Source: Planctomycetota bacterium (GTDB lineage: Bacteria; Planctomycetota; J132). Taken from it: a DNA stretch of 51,717 nt. Of this stretch, positions 7,774-27,737 are shown one piece after another. A program made the position numbers and the translations under genes. Numbering within the stretch: position 1 is the first letter of the stretch; the number at the start of each line of letters is the position of its first letter. The stretch is taken from assembly GCA_003694635.1 (NCBI GenBank), contig RFKQ01000075.1:1-51717 (forward strand), written 5' to 3'. The notes beneath the pieces are model-generated. The model did not search any database. It was not told where the DNA came from and was given only the letters and a program-made list of their open reading frames with translations.

Positions 7774-9563
7774 CAAATCAAAGCCGCCCAGAAATCTCTA
7801 TTGTAGTTCCGGCCCACAATGAGGAGGAGAATCTAATCCCCCTAGTGGAAAAACTGCAAAACACCTTGCAGAAGGATTCTAAAAAAAGGGAATACGAAAT
7901 CGTTCTTGTGGATGACAATAGCACGGATGGTACCCCAGCGCTGGTGGACAAACTTGCCAACGAACACCCGCGCATACGCGCCGTTCATCGATACAAAGAT
8001 GGCGGCTTTGGCAACGCGGTAAAGCGAGGGCTTCGGGAAGCCCAAGGAAAGTTTATTGTACCGGTGATGGCGGATCTTTCTGAAGAGCCTGAAGACATTT
8101 TAAAATTGGTGGACAAACTGGAAGAAGGATATGATATTGCGTATGGCTCCCGTTTTTGCAAAGGCGGGAGCGTAGAGGGATATCCACGCTTAAAGTTGAT
8201 CGTAAACAGGTTTGGCAACCACTTAATTCGATTTCTTTTTGGAATTTCTCATAAAGATATTACCAACGCTTTTAAGGCTTACCGCCGAGAGGTCTTGGAA
8301 GCTGTAGGGATTGAGAATTTGAAATCATCGGACTTTTCGCTTACGATTGAAATCCCCTTAAAAGCGCATATCCTAGGTTTTAAAAGCGCAGAGGTCCCCG
8401 TTCGTTGGTACGGCCGGCAAAAGGGAGAAGCCAAATTAAAACTCTCGGAACACTGCCATAAATACGGTTTCCGTCTCCTTCAGATGTTTTTCCAAGGCAA
8501 TCAACTGGCCCTCCGAGAGCTGTTTGCTTCCATTGTGGGGAAGTCAAAAAAAAGAAGCATTCTCTATTTTCTCCTAGGCCTAGGGTTGGTATTGGCGTTG
8601 ATCCATTTGGCAGGATTGGCAAACATACAAGCTCTTATATTCAAAATATCGCCTTATTTCATTTTGGCTAGTCTTGGGGCGATTTTAAGCAGCTTTATTT
8701 TGCGCACATGGCGCTGGAGTGTGCTTTTGCGAAGCTGCGGTTATCGAGAAGAACGCAGCATTTTGTTCAAAAGTATCCTAAGCGGGTGGTTTTTAAACTA
8801 TCTTCTGCCCTTTCGGCTAGGAGATGCAGCTAGAGCGTTGAGCTTAAAAACCACTCGCCATAAGCCGCTCCTGATTTCTTTTTTTACCATTGTGCTGGAG
8901 CGACTGATGGATCTGGCAATCTTTTCTCTAGTCCTGGCCTATGCATGGGGGAGGCTTTCTTTCTCAAAAGAACAGTACACAAGCCTGCTCTGGATCGGAG
9001 TGGCAGTTGCTCTGGCGATCGGATTCACGATTTTGCTATGGAAATATGAGAAATGGCTGCTGAAATGTTTGCCAAAATTTCTTTTTGACCTCCAAGAAGA
9101 ACTGCGTCTATTTCCCCAAGCCGCTCGATCCATCTTTCAAAATCCTTTTGCGCTAGCCCTTTGCTTCGCGATCACAGTTGGCATTTGGTTTTTCGAAATC
9201 GCTAGCCTCTATTTCATCGGCAAAGGCCTAGGGCTGGATTTGCCCTTCTGGGAAAGCACGCTAGCTGGGATAAGTGCCTTCCTCGCCCAAGCCTTTCCCA
9301 CAATACCCGCAGGACTCGGCATACACGAAGCAGCCATTGCAAGCACCCTATACAGTAAAGGTATCCCTTTTGATCAAGGACTTTCCTTGGCCCTATTGGA
9401 TCATTTCTGCAGAATGCTGGTGATCTTTGGGCTCGGGTTAGTGGCCACTATACACCTTGGATTTGAATCCAGGCACTTTTTCCACCACCGCTCCCGCGCT
9501 TGGGAAAAAGTAAGAAAATCAACCAAAAGCAAACCACAGACTTCTGGGTTTGGAGACGAATAA
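7755..9563 (+). CDS. Family-2 glycosyltransferase (Dpm1/polyprenyl-phosphate sugar synthase-like) fused to a lysyl-PG-synthase-type (UPF0104, flippase-like) transmembrane domain
   Basis: The N-terminus is [14 protein letters not shown]...VDDNSTDGT (GT-A fold, DxD-like). The C-terminal half has about 8 hydrophobic helices with [12 protein letters not shown], typical of the LPG_synthase_TM family. It overlaps the upstream gene by 19 nt. Confidence 0.8.
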
Positions 9564-22950: not shown

Positions 22951-23661
22951 CTAACGCAAACGCAAAATCCTATCCCCCCTCAAATAAAAACTTGACCTAT
23001 GCTCTAACTCTAACCTCTTGCGCGCAAAAACTTCCCGAAAACCCTCCCGTAGCCTCCGGCGAAACTTTAACCCAACCGGAGCAGTGGAAATCGCCTCCTC
23101 CACCACCCTAGAAAAAATCGTATAAAACCTCTCTGCCCTCAACAACAAAAGACAATATACCCTCCCCTCACGCCGATCATAAAAATACCTCAAAGGCAAC
23201 GCCTCCAAAACCAAAGAACGAAGCAAAACATCCCGCGCCTCCCATCGATATAACACCCCATGCACCCGACAACCCCTACTCCCACCCTCCCGCAATCCAC
23301 ATGTGTGCCAACAAACCAACGATACCCAACTGTCCCAACGACTGCGCAAAAAATCCAATAAACTCCTGCGAGCCAAACGCAACGACTCCCCATAAGATAC
23401 CTTCACCGAAAAACGATGAGAACTCCATCCATACGATAAAAAATATCCCTGTACCGCATCCGATGATAAAAACCTCCCATGCACCAAACAAACCCTACCC
23501 ATGTCATACCCCCCTTCCCAACAAATACACCTGTCCCCAACCTCAACCCTCTCCTGAGCACAGGAAAACCAAATCAAACAAAATAAAACAACCCAACCTA
23601 CATCAACCCAACTTCGAAACAATAAGCGTAAAGCTGCCAACAATCTCCAAACCCTCCTCAC
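22951..23661 (-). CDS. Hypothetical lipoprotein
   Basis: It starts with GTG and has a signal peptide with a lipobox-like LIWFSC. No recognisable domain was found. It is Arg/Trp/Cys-rich, and its composition is dominated by the local G+T-rich coding strand. Confidence 0.45.
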   Translation of the reverse strand: MRRVWRLLAALRLLFRSWVDVGWVVLFCLIWFSCAQERVEVGDRCICWEGGYDMGRVCLVHGRFLSSDAVQGYFLSYGWSSHRFSVKVSYGESLRLARRSLLDFLRSRWDSWVSLVCWHTCGLREGGSRGCRVHGVLYRWEARDVLLRSLVLEALPLRYFYDRREGRVYCLLLLRAERFYTIFSRVVEEAISTAPVGLKFRRRLREGFREVFARKRLELEHRSSFYLRGDRILRLR

Positions 23662-23966
23662 TCACGTCTCTTCTCTCAACAACTCTAAGCCAAACTATTC
23701 TAAAATTTGCCCTGAAAATATTCAACCATTTTCCCTAAAATCTCGTATGAGAAAAAACCTCTAACCATAGCAGGTGTCCCAAAACGAGACAGGGTTACTA
23801 TAATTTTTTTTACAAATTTTGAAAAAATTTTCAAAATTTTTATCTTTATCTTTCTAAAAATCTAACTCTCTGAAAAATAAAGAAAATACGAAAAATTCTA
23901 AAAGTAAAAATTTCCAAAAATAAAGCGATTACCTTCGAAAGGTACGATTTTTGCTAAAATATCGCC

Positions 23967-24145
23967 AAACATACTCGGGTTTTCTCCTCTTCTACCTCGC
24001 CCTCGGGAGGCGGGTCGGTATAGGGCGAAATCCGAAAGGAGAAAACCCCCCCTCACTCCGTATAAGCAAAACCTTCAGCGTTTATACGTAAAGGGCAAGG
24101 TGTGTGATTTCTGAATCTCCCCCACCCTGGGTGGGGGTTCTGCAA
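23967..24145 (+). ncRNA. Candidate structured small RNA (unknown family)
   Basis: An extended -10 TGcTAAAAT lies at 23952-23960. There is a 12-bp perfect long-range helix (GGGTTTTCTCCT 23977-23988 with AGGAGAAAACCC 24037-24048) and a 7-bp helix (CGTATAA 24059-24065 with TTATACG 24082-24088). A terminal 8-bp GC hairpin (24119-24137) is followed by TTCTG. G content is locally restored inside an otherwise G-depleted strand. Confidence 0.35.
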
Positions 24146-24422: not shown

Positions 24423-27400
24423 CTATTGCCCCAACTTCCTCACCGTGCGCGTGATATTCCCATTGGGATCCTGCGCCACAATCTCTATCACCTTCACCCG
24501 CATAATATCAATTTTGGCACGCCACCTACCCCCCTTATCCACCTTCACCTCCTGCCCATTTACCCACACCCGAGAGCCAGGCTTGTCCACCTTCCCCTGA
24601 ATCTCCACCACAAAACTCACCGATGGGGGGCGAGTGTCAATATTGATCTTCACCTCCCTAGAAGAGGTATTCCCAGCCCTATCCCTAGCCACCACACGTA
24701 TCCAATGCTCCCCGTCTTTCGCAAAACGAACATATGCTAAAAAACCCCCCTTCTTTAAAAGCTTTGCAGAAACACCATTGACCCTTACCTCCGCTAAATT
24801 CTCATCCTGTACCGTCCCTAAAACCGCTATTTTCCTCCGATTTAGCCGAAGACCCGAAGCAGGTGAACGAATGGAGAGCACCGGAGCCTTCGTGTCAATC
24901 ACAACAGTGCGTACCCGCTCAGCTACATTCCCTAAAGTGTCCTCCGCACGAACTCTTAACCTATACCTCCCATCCTTAGGAAAATCTAAAATAGCCGCAA
25001 ACTTCCCCTTCCTATAGCGCGTATACTTGCCATTGACCAACACAGATTTTAAATGCGGATCCTCCACCTTCCCCACAACCCGCACCTTCCTCTTGTTTAA
25101 ATGCGCATCCTGAACAGGAAAAAGAAACTCCAACCGGGGAGCACGAGAATCCAACTCCAACCAACGTCGTACCTCCACCTCACGACCAGCAAAATCCCTC
25201 CCCCACAACTGCAAAAGATTCTTCCCCTCCTTCAAAGCAACACGAACGCGAAAATAACTCCTACCCTCCCGAAACTCAAACGAAACCAAACGCTTGTTCA
25301 ATCGCAACTCAGACAAACGCTTATTGGCTACTCCCTCCACCCAAACCTGAGACTGGCCTACCAATAACCTCTGAGGACGAACCAAGCTCAACTTCAATGG
25401 AACCAAATCCACCTCCACCCAAAACTCCTTCTTCGCCACATTCCCCGCCTTGTCCCTCGCCACCACCTCAATCCGCTTCTTCCCTGAGGTGGAAAACACC
25501 AACAAACTCCCGAAAACTCCCCTGCGTGGAAAATAACGAGCCAACTTCCCATTCACCCAAACCTGCGCCAGATTCTCCTCCTCCACCCTAGCCATCACCT
25601 TCACCTCCCTACGAGAAACACGCACCCCCGGCAACGGCGCGCGCACCTCCACCCTAGGCGCCCGGGTGTCCAAGTGCACCCTTAACCACTCCACAACCCT
25701 ATTCCCCGCCCGATCCCGCGCCTCCAAACGAACCTCCTTTAACCCCTCCCCTACGCCCAAATCCCACCAAAACTCAAAACGCCCCCCCTCCTGCAAAGCA
25801 ACTACCTCACCATTTGCACTCATCGATTGAAAATGCTCATCCTCCACCCTACCTCGCACCAAAACCTTGCGCCGATTATGCCAACTCCCAGACTTCGGCG
25901 AACTCACCTCCAAACGAGGTGGAGTAGCATCCAAAACCAACTCTTCCCTCCAACTCCCCTCGGACTCCACGCCCTTCGCCCGAATCCAAATCGGATTCCT
26001 CCCCTCCCTTAACCGTAAACGCACCTGGAAAAACGTACGAACCCCCTTCGGACGCTTCACATAACGCAACTGCGCCCGCTGACCATTCACCTCCGCCCAT
26101 AATACCTTCTGGTTAAACATCCCATAATACCAAGTCTCCGAAGAACTCACCAATAAGCTCGCCGGTGCCAACCTCTTCATCCTCAAAGGAACCACCCTCC
26201 GACGTAGAGAAAAATAAGACGTCGAACCATTTCCATACCTATCCCAAGCCTCCACCTTGAGACGATTTAAACCCGGCGCCAACTTTACCCTCGCCTTGTA
26301 AAGACCATTTCCCAAAACCTCCGCCTCCTCCCCCTGCACCAATACCCTCCCCACACCAGAATCATCCACCACCCGCAAAATAACCTCCACAAACGAACGC
26401 ACCACCACTCCCTCCAATGGCGGAGATACCCACGAAATCACCGGCCCCACCACATCCGTCCGTAACCGACGAACCAATATCGCCCGATTCCCCGCCTTGT
26501 CCTCCGCCTCCACACGAATAACCCTCTTCTTCCCCAACAAAAGCCTGCAAACAAAATTCCCATTCCCCGTCATTTGCGCCAGAAAACCATTCACCTTCAC
26601 ATACTTCAAATTCTCCTCCACCACCCGACCCGCAACCAACACCTCACCCCCCTTCACCACCGCCCCCTCCCGAGGACGAAAAACCTCCAAACGCGGCGCC
26701 TTTGTGTCTAAAAAAACATAAAAAGAAAAACGACCTACGTTCCCATGCACATCCCGCGCCTTCACCAAAATCGTATTCCTCCCCTCCTTTAACCGAGCCA
26801 AAAACACAAACTTCCCCTTGCTCACCAAAACTCTCTTCCCTTGCACCACTACCCCCGCCAAAGGACTCTTGTCCTTCACCTCCCCCAAAATCGTCAACGT
26901 AGCCTCCCTAAAAAACTGACCCAACGGCGGATATAAAATCCGTATCTTCGGCGCCTCCCCATCCGCAACCACCACCTTTTTACCTACCTCCGCTTCCACC
27001 CGATTGGCTGTGGAACGCACAATCTTCAACGATGGATTCCCGCAACGCAACAAAACCCGCTCTAACCCCACGCGCCTGCCCCGAAACGTAATCTCATATA
27101 TCGCCGTCTGCTTCAAATACGAACGACGTACCGCAGCCTTAACGCGCTTCACCCCCTTCAAAAACGCCTCAAATAACACTACCTGAGGATAAGAAATCTT
27201 GGAAATCACCACCTCAAACTCCCCCTCCAAACGACTAGCCTTCTTCCAAAAAATCCCAATGCGCTTGGCCGCCTCCCGCGCCCCCTTCTTCGCCATCCGC
27301 ATCAAAAATCGCATCGAAGAAACCGACGGCTTACGGTACGCCTTAGACCATATCACCTGTGCTGTGTCCACCACAATCGCTTTAAATGAACAGCGAATGT

Positions 27401-27737
27401 TATAAAACCGATAAGAACGACCGTAAATCTCCCGCACCCCTTGCAACTCCAGCCGAACCTTCCCCGCAAAAATCACCTCCACCCCATAGCGATGCTTCAA
27501 CGCCAATAACTTCTTCCTATCCTTGCTATAAATGGCCGCATCCACCTTCTTGATATTTTTAAGCTGATCCCTGTCCACAATCCTATAGCCAGCACCAAGA
27601 AAAACCTCCTCCACCACACCCGCCACCAAATCCGCCCTCTGACCCTGAATGTAAACCAAAACCCTCGGCTTCGCAATATCCGCCCAAAGAACATCAGAAA
27701 AACAAACCAAAGCCAACAAAACGAAAATACGTCTCAT
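24423..27737 (-). CDS. Secreted 1104-aa protein: N-terminal LpoB/CsgG/FlgT-like alpha/beta domains plus 10 tandem ~85-aa Ig-like (D-T-x-A-P type) modules
   Basis: The signal peptide is MRRIFVLLALVCFSDVLWA. The recurring module is DT(K/R)AP.LEV..P..G..V....V.V.G.V.DE.L..V.VNG.......G.F......L.EG.N.I.V.A.D.AGN. The SD-like GGGAGAG lies 7 nt upstream of the ATG. Confidence 0.8.
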   Translation of the reverse strand: MRRIFVLLALVCFSDVLWADIAKPRVLVYIQGQRADLVAGVVEEVFLGAGYRIVDRDQLKNIKKVDAAIYSKDRKKLLALKHRYGVEVIFAGKVRLELQGVREIYGRSYRFYNIRCSFKAIVVDTAQVIWSKAYRKPSVSSMRFLMRMAKKGAREAAKRIGIFWKKASRLEGEFEVVISKISYPQVVLFEAFLKGVKRVKAAVRRSYLKQTAIYEITFRGRRVGLERVLLRCGNPSLKIVRSTANRVEAEVGKKVVVADGEAPKIRILYPPLGQFFREATLTILGEVKDKSPLAGVVVQGKRVLVSKGKFVFLARLKEGRNTILVKARDVHGNVGRFSFYVFLDTKAPRLEVFRPREGAVVKGGEVLVAGRVVEENLKYVKVNGFLAQMTGNGNFVCRLLLGKKRVIRVEAEDKAGNRAILVRRLRTDVVGPVISWVSPPLEGVVVRSFVEVILRVVDDSGVGRVLVQGEEAEVLGNGLYKARVKLAPGLNRLKVEAWDRYGNGSTSYFSLRRRVVPLRMKRLAPASLLVSSSETWYYGMFNQKVLWAEVNGQRAQLRYVKRPKGVRTFFQVRLRLREGRNPIWIRAKGVESEGSWREELVLDATPPRLEVSSPKSGSWHNRRKVLVRGRVEDEHFQSMSANGEVVALQEGGRFEFWWDLGVGEGLKEVRLEARDRAGNRVVEWLRVHLDTRAPRVEVRAPLPGVRVSRREVKVMARVEEENLAQVWVNGKLARYFPRRGVFGSLLVFSTSGKKRIEVVARDKAGNVAKKEFWVEVDLVPLKLSLVRPQRLLVGQSQVWVEGVANKRLSELRLNKRLVSFEFREGRSYFRVRVALKEGKNLLQLWGRDFAGREVEVRRWLELDSRAPRLEFLFPVQDAHLNKRKVRVVGKVEDPHLKSVLVNGKYTRYRKGKFAAILDFPKDGRYRLRVRAEDTLGNVAERVRTVVIDTKAPVLSIRSPASGLRLNRRKIAVLGTVQDENLAEVRVNGVSAKLLKKGGFLAYVRFAKDGEHWIRVVARDRAGNTSSREVKINIDTRPPSVSFVVEIQGKVDKPGSRVWVNGQEVKVDKGGRWRAKIDIMRVKVIEIVAQDPNGNITRTVRKLGQ

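Follow-up and report, generated by a model that had tools for sequence, protein, structure and literature searches.

Qrr, GlmY/GlmZ, and CrcZ are textbook signal-integrating small RNAs (sRNAs) present in one to five copies, and they are the described systems closest to the locus considered here. Qrr1-5 of Vibrio (LuxO and sigma-54) are encoded by paralogous genes for trans-acting sRNAs that have their own sigma-54 promoters and activator sites, respond to one activator, and contribute additively to dosage. GlmY/GlmZ of Enterobacteriaceae (GlrR/QseF, sigma-54, and IHF) display a layout of activator sites, an IHF site, and a -24/-12 promoter and work by sequestering a protein partner, while CrcZ/CrcY of Pseudomonas (CbrB and sigma-54) are sigma-54/activator-dependent non-coding RNAs (ncRNAs) that likewise act by protein sequestration. 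A resemblance of another kind is offered by the Correia, RIP/BIME, and REPIN/MITE (miniature inverted-repeat transposable element) sequences, which are short structured intergenic repeats found in tens to hundreds of copies, some of them with IHF sites and outward promoters. The present analysis concerns a stretch of 51,717 nt from a Planctomycetota bacterium (contig RFKQ01000075.1 of assembly GCA_003694635.1, positions 1 to 51,717; hereafter, the window), in which an initial annotation had singled out a 194-nt intergenic segment (23952-24145) as a candidate structured RNA.

The best explanation, to which a rough probability of 0.6 is assigned, is that this segment belongs to a gene family specific to its lineage, with at least 40 dispersed members, each of which would specify a structured ncRNA of about 175 nt under the control of an enhancer-dependent sigma-54 promoter of its own. 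Sequence conservation is the basis for the promoter architecture, and compensatory change is the basis for the fold. In the window, the predicted RNA spans 23966..24140 on the + strand, with its start placed 12 nt after the -12 C and its end just past the terminal hairpin. To our knowledge, no sigma-54-controlled small RNA approaches such a copy number.

Copy number and extent of the unit

In a DNA search, the 194-nt segment has 41 matches in its own genome, a metagenome-assembled genome (MAG) of an uncultured hot-spring planctomycete that comprises 2.52 Mb in 158 contigs and is 67% complete. Iterated nhmmer searches with a profile of ~200 nt yield 45 matches at E<1e-20, comprising 34 full-length copies and 11 that are truncated by contig ends. 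A covariance model of the RNA (R1) recovers the same set and two degenerate copies. The truncated copies share exactly 99 identical bases with other contig ends; the assembly therefore breaks at near-identical copies, and the truncated copies represent 6-11 further loci. The true copy number is 40-45 in two thirds of a genome, plus the two degenerate copies. The initial annotation treated the segment as single copy, and it is instead one of at least 40 dispersed copies.

All copies are intergenic, each has at least 220 bp of upstream spacer, and the unit measures ~400 bp. It extends ~190 bp upstream of the segment as first delimited, to a conserved palindrome. Pairwise identity ranges from 73 to 97%; most values fall between 73 and 80%, with small young subfamilies at 87-97%. 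No copy adjoins an activator gene, and the copies show no orientation bias with respect to local GC skew. Between positions 9500 and 36000 of the window, this skew is very strong, with values from about -0.35 to -0.58 for the + strand, independent of gene orientation.

Contig ends that lie inside family copies and share the 99-base overlaps include the end of contig C132 with the starts of C16 and C56, C64 with C77, and the ends of C100, C103, and C105 with the ends of C110, C74, and C87. The repeat is therefore a major cause of assembly fragmentation, and its units account for many of the contig breaks.

The initial annotation had placed the segment outside the known RNA families, and this assessment stands. 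Rfam 15 returns no match at the gathering score anywhere in the window, where matches at E up to 10 are at chance level only, and 20 other copies give no Rfam match at E up to 0.1. The families covered include 6S, SRP, RNase P, and tmRNA as well as Qrr, GlmY/GlmZ, and CrcZ. A tRNA/tmRNA scan found none, and a literature search returned no description of such a family. Searches beyond the host genome are equally negative. DNA searches of 40 relatives, all of which share merely the phylum, give no match, and R1 finds only noise (22-26 bits) in 400 genomes of the phylum. A pattern made from the invariant loop of the RNA has six single chance hits among the GTDB species genomes, all in unrelated GC-rich genomes; two patterns searched in JGI metagenome contigs give no match, and viral contigs contain none.

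Promoter and upstream module

All 39 of 39 copies contain the dinucleotide pair GG-N10-GC, which in the window forms the putative sigma-54 promoter AGGTACGATTTTTGCT (23940..23955, + strand), with the -24 GG at 23941-23942 and the -12 GC at 23953-23954. The family consensus, wGG(a/t/c)A(c/t)r-N2-TTTTGCT, may be set beside the sigma-54 -24/-12 consensus, TGGCACG-N4-TTGCW. Conservation is absent over the 12-16 nt after the -12 element (-11 to +1), which is what one would expect of DNA that lies outside both the contacted and the transcribed sequence. From this pattern, the promoter is predicted to be sigma-54 dependent and activator requiring. The initial annotation had read TGCTAAAAT, which does occur at 23952-23960, as an extended -10 element. 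This reading does not hold, as the motif is the -12 element TTGCT of the sigma-54 promoter, only TTGCT and not TAAAAT is kept among the copies, and a sigma-70 promoter pattern scan gives no support for an extended -10.

The genome encodes the machinery that such a promoter would need. A full-length rpoN gene (C105:13467-14951) has the activator-interacting (AID), core-binding (CBD), and DNA-binding (DBD) domains, and there are six enhancer-binding proteins, all with a Sigma54_activat domain and a C-terminal Fis-type HTH_8 domain; three of these are NtrC types with a receiver domain and two have GAF/GGDEF domains. The family supplies 22 of the 54 strict sigma-54 consensus matches in the assembled genome, and the others lie elsewhere. 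Divergent sigma-54-like promoters adjoin only five to six copies. The genes behind them (serC-like, porin-like, pilT-like, xdhC-like, and HU-like) are unrelated and thus give no clue to the signal through a shared regulon.

One such arrangement involves a gene of the HU/IHF family (C36:35393-35653, minus strand) whose product has a signal-peptide-like N-terminus and which has its own strict sigma-54 consensus, TGGCACAGTTATTGCT. This promoter is divergent from the family copy at C36:36228-36419 and 374 nt away from it; the two may share an enhancer, or their proximity may be a coincidence.

Near the 5′ end of the unit stands the palindrome TGTCCC-N5-GRGACA, which occurs in either orientation and forms the core of an upstream module of ~40 bp. 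Its window representative, TGTCCC-AAAAC-GAGACA (23775..23791), is centred ~183 bp upstream of the predicted start. The form GTCYC-N5-GRGAC is present in 34 of the 39 copies that retain the 5′ end; it precedes the promoter by 139-368 nt, and most often by about 160. The genome holds 45 true palindromes, 40 of which lie upstream of family copies; four others are within 180 nt of a contig end and face outward, and one is beside a degenerate copy. Changes in one half-site (GGGAC versus GAGAC) are uncompensated in the other arm, which is the pattern of a dimeric protein site and not of an RNA hairpin. The palindrome is therefore regarded as a candidate activator-binding enhancer, and its 6-5-6 layout is similar to that of NtrC-type sites. 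Tandem modules of two to three palindromes occur at C74:29693, C100:120, C103:20510, and C125:2434, with a spacing of 31 bp at three of these loci and of 42-49 bp in C125. A spacing of 31 bp corresponds to about three helical turns.

In the aligned upstream regions, the candidate enhancer continues into a conserved extension, GGGTTACTATAATTTTTTTTAC in the window (23792..23813) and GGGTTACTTTAAAAATTTTGAC in the family consensus. Closer to the promoter, at 23863..23875 and ~103 bp upstream of the predicted start, lies the IHF-like site TAACTCTCTGAAA, which differs by one mismatch from YAANNNNTTGAWW (C replaces the first T of TTG). Exact YAANNNNTTGAWW is shared by 16 of 39 copies, in each of them within the interval from -116 to -89, compared with 6% of A+T-rich control windows. 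The genome has three HU/IHF-family genes, and the site is a putative target of IHF. Between the candidate enhancer and the IHF-like site, the window also has an A+T-rich near-palindrome (23814-23839) with the core TTGAAAAAATTTTCAA. Several other copies have A/T palindromes of a similar kind in the region from -40 to -70 or so, for which no common motif was defined.

Fold of the RNA and compensatory change

Covariation among the paralogues replaces conservation in close relatives as the test of the fold, which consists of four helices (P1-P4) and was assessed on the 34 full copies. R1 matches the window copy at 23963-24140 with 147 bits. Folding energy is weak evidence alone, as its z-scores against shuffles (-2.9 and -3.0) are modest and alike on the two strands. 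The paralogue matches and the compensatory changes in the helices, on the other hand, mark the segment as more than a chance structure, and the proposal of a candidate structured ncRNA of ~175-180 nt on the + strand is upheld. In a plain MAFFT alignment, 89% of the cells are paired and 22 pairs are changed on both sides, compared with 13.0 ± 2.2 in column shuffles (the observed value is attained in 0 of 500) and 8-12 when the partners are slid. After all copies were realigned to R1, 93% of the cells are paired and 32 of 46 pairs are changed on both sides versus 7-15 with slid partners, in an alignment that leans towards the structure to which it was fitted. G-U cells number 161 against 42 A-C cells, an excess which indicates that it is the strand read from the promoter that forms the pairs.

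P2 and P3 hold the covariation signal, while P4 hardly varies. P2 (23977..24048) is a long hairpin of three helical segments with 93-99% of its cells paired and a 5′ strand that is nearly all pyrimidine. Its base is the 12-bp perfect helix already recognized in the initial annotation, in which GGGTTTTCTCCT (23977-23988) is exactly complementary to AGGAGAAAACCC (24037-24048). Within the variable segments, 15 of 21 pairs are changed on both sides, and at one of them 19 copies have GC where 16 have UA. The UCC-GAAA-GGA element, once viewed as a tetraloop, is the 3′ strand of the middle segment of P2 in the covariation-supported fold. The tip of P2 (24003..24022) contains the G-rich 16-nt sequence TCGGGAGGCGGGTCGG (24003-24018), which includes a Shine-Dalgarno (SD)-like GGGAGG. 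This sequence is identical in 34 of 34 full copies and in every fragment that covers it, despite ~25% divergence elsewhere. Such uneven conservation argues for selection on each copy.

P3 (24059..24088) is a second hairpin, formed by CGTATAAGC and GTTTATACG, with a loop that differs in length and sequence among the copies. The 7-bp helix proposed earlier, CGTATAA (24059-24065) with TTATACG (24082-24088), is present within it and grows to 9 bp through the pairs G24066-T24081 and C24067-G24080. All eight of the modelled pairs are changed on both sides, 93.5% of the cells are paired, and the closing pair is GC in 18 copies, AU in 10, and CG in five.

P1 pairs ACATACT (23969..23975) with GGTGTGT (24099-24105); this helix, given as ACAUAC with GGUAUGU in the four-helix structure, is tentative, with 62-81% of its cells paired and some changes on both sides. 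A purine-rich block, AAAGGGCAAG followed by GGTGTGT (24090..24105), pairs back to the C/U tract after P2 in most copies; by a rough count, this pairing of the tract with the purine block AAAGGGAGGAGG, which precedes the 3′ strand of P1, appears in 26 of 34 minimum-energy folds. The RNA also contains several GGA motifs, and GGGAGGCGGGUCGG may form a two-layer G-quadruplex.

The 3′ end of the predicted RNA is P4, the G+C hairpin CCCCCACC-CTG-GGTGGGGG, which is located at 24119..24137 as the initial annotation had it. Its motif occurs 41 times in the genome, 39 times in family copies and twice in the degenerate copies, and nowhere outside the family. Only two to four U residues and then an A-run follow the hairpin, so P4 is not a canonical intrinsic terminator.

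Function, rival explanations, and known systems

The architecture suggests a mechanism in which an activator with a Fis-type domain would bind the palindrome TGTCCC-N5-GRGACA ~140-370 bp upstream, while the A+T-rich spacer with its IHF-like site near -100 would bend the DNA. The activator could then open the sigma-54 RNA polymerase sitting at GG-N10-GC, and transcription would begin ~12 nt after the -12 C and stop at the G+C hairpin. Because every true palindrome found belongs to the family, one signal would be expected to turn on all copies together, so that the RNA would be made in large amounts. Its activity most likely resides in the invariant G-rich tip of P2, through which it would bind a single shared partner (either a protein or a C-rich RNA), and the rest of the RNA may be a scaffold that is free to co-vary. 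The copies might accordingly act additively, since all palindromes are in the family and the sole invariant exposed element, the G-rich SD-like loop, is the same in all copies, but this suggestion of a large RNA dose acting on one common partner is made with low confidence.

A bolder version holds that the bacterium devotes much of its set of sigma-54 promoters to one ncRNA, that one activator is kept solely for the family, and that, on one signal, the SD-like loop would titrate a core component, either the anti-SD end of the 16S rRNA in the 30S subunit or an RNA-binding protein, with the unit copying itself in the genome by means that leave no recognisable transposon features. Such a global switch based on RNA dosage would be of a kind not yet described, and it is a speculative and quite unlikely proposal. 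The assembly lacks the 3′ end of the 16S rRNA.

Several observations weigh against the interpretation as a family of sigma-54-controlled ncRNA genes. Neither CsrA nor Hfq was found as a candidate partner in the 67%-complete genome. Complements of the loop are not clearly enriched elsewhere in the genome, with 29 matches to the 11-mer versus roughly 12 expected from genome size and no pattern among them. No homologue occurs in any other genome searched. The unit lies 277 nt upstream of recA in this genome, and recA offers the single comparable syntenic locus. The best RecA matches are named Planctomycetota, and the nearest have 80% identity and come from two fragmented MAGs. The nearest relative has no unit upstream of its recA; the locus (L093 1231-1589, contig CAZEJE010000537.1 of GCA_964512585.1) is a 360-bp A+T-rich gap with no trace of one. 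As to the RNA itself, P1 is weakly supported and is part of the minimum-energy structure in 12 of 34 copies, the terminal hairpin lacks a U-tract, and a pattern scan calls no intrinsic terminator. All comparisons are among paralogues of one incomplete MAG, in which changes that were inherited enter the counts more than once, and the invariance of the loop could be due to gene conversion.

The main rival is a non-autonomous dispersed repeat, a selfish element of the MITE, REP, or Correia type that has promoter- and IHF-like sequence, whose hairpins would serve the spread of DNA or nothing and whose RNA would be incidental. This alternative is unlikely. The high copy number in dispersed intergenic DNA would suit it, as would the young subfamily that is 87-97% identical and breaks the assembly at contig ends with exact 99-nt overlaps, and repeats with IHF sites or promoters are known from Neisseria (Correia) and E. 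coli (RIP/BIME). In the closest paralogue pairs, the homology covers the whole unit with fairly sharp ends, beginning 10-25 nt ahead of the palindrome and stopping 10-25 nt past P4. Because the enhancer and promoter, which are not transcribed, fall within this homology, the spread of the unit takes place at the DNA level, without an RNA copy as intermediate. The same boundaries, however, have neither terminal inverted repeats nor target-site duplications. The sole Y1 transposase gene has unrelated local repeats of its own, and no member of the family adjoins it. Functional patchiness also speaks against a purely selfish element, in that the promoter hexamers and the loop are invariant and the spacers are free, as does the variable distance and orientation of the palindrome relative to the promoter. 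The excess of G-U over A-C cells, moreover, points to pairing in a single strand. The rival is not exclusive of the ncRNA gene family, because the young subfamilies show that the unit is still being copied and a gene family must spread somehow.

A classical MITE or REPIN was considered separately; dispersed near-identical copies are present, but inverted repeats, duplications, and a linked RAYT gene are not. The single Y1_Tnp (IS200/RAYT-like) gene of the genome, at C99:8207-8896 on the minus strand, is accompanied by its own local repeats of 38-83 nt, which are confined to that contig.

The units could instead be portable cassettes of a sigma-54 promoter and leader that control the downstream gene, in which the RNA would attenuate in cis and the last hairpin would terminate transcription only conditionally. 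In 21 of 40 copies, a gene does follow in the same orientation, at a distance of only 52-120 nt in some cases, and by inspection the purine block looks like an arm of that hairpin and could compete for pairing. Against this, the other 19 copies, including that of the window, face a convergent gene, the genes that follow on the same strand are housekeeping genes with no relation to one another (thiG, recA, pgk, nuoF, a P-type ATPase, and others), and the distance to the next gene reaches 1.2 kb. The cassette model is thus very unlikely. The same near-even split of strands bears on the riboswitch question. The initial annotation had doubted a cis riboswitch and observed that no + strand gene follows, which is correct since the next gene (24423-27737) lies on the minus strand, and the RNA is not the leader of a downstream gene in the family as a whole. 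A riboswitch or other cis leader is accordingly rejected, as the copies have no consistent same-strand position before functionally related genes.

A coding function of the unit, yielding a small protein or peptide, for instance from an ATG/GTG after the GGAGG-like block that precedes such a codon in most copies or from a frame across the long hairpin, is extremely improbable even though ORFs (open reading frames) of 46 and 52 codons overlap the window copy, as all six frames are alike across the copies with none distinctly open, ATG frames end after 3-12 codons at differing places, the ATG/GTG inside the purine block opens no frame conserved across copies, the hairpin has single-base indels among the copies, and the substitutions compensate for pairing.

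At the window locus, the unit occupies a 761-bp gap bounded by two minus-strand genes. The gene next after the RNA segment (24423-27737) encodes an Ig/Glucodextran_B-repeat protein of 1104 aa. The gene on the other side (22951-23661) is an orphan ORF of 236 aa that has no Pfam domain and whose sole match among 5.8 billion proteins is itself. A 2.3-kb Logan contig of SRR7905022 encodes the same 236-aa protein and terminates within the repeat. SRR7905022 derives from source-pool sediment of the Jinata hot spring (PMC12501874).

If the ncRNA gene family is real, it would give this deep uncultured hot-spring planctomycete lineage its first defined structured RNA family, and it would be a case of a whole regulatory gene unit that spreads through a genome without transposon hallmarks. 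At least 40 enhancer-promoter-RNA units under one apparent activator would also represent extreme gene-dosage regulation. The diverged paralogues provide a covariation data set both for the RNA fold and for the grammar of sigma-54 promoters and enhancers in Planctomycetota.

The family shares its design with Qrr, GlmY/GlmZ, and CrcZ and, as the Rfam searches show, belongs to none of them. Qrr RNAs are ~100 nt long, come in one to five copies, depend on Hfq, and have known mRNA targets, whereas here an RNA of ~175 nt is present in at least 40 copies, has no sequence or structure match to Qrr in Rfam, and occurs in a genome in which Hfq was not found. CrcZ/CrcY and GlmY/GlmZ are encoded by one or two genes per genome, usually beside the activator gene, whereas the copies described here are scattered and none is beside one. 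In their number and intergenic dispersal, the units approach the Correia, RIP/BIME, and REPIN/MITE repeats. Those elements, however, have inverted repeats, target duplications, or RAYT, and none has a sigma-54 enhancer-promoter, while the full layout of a gene, from enhancer and promoter to RNA and hairpin, is kept in this family. A copy number that is higher by an order of magnitude and dispersal away from activator genes set the family apart from Qrr, GlmY/GlmZ, and CrcZ.

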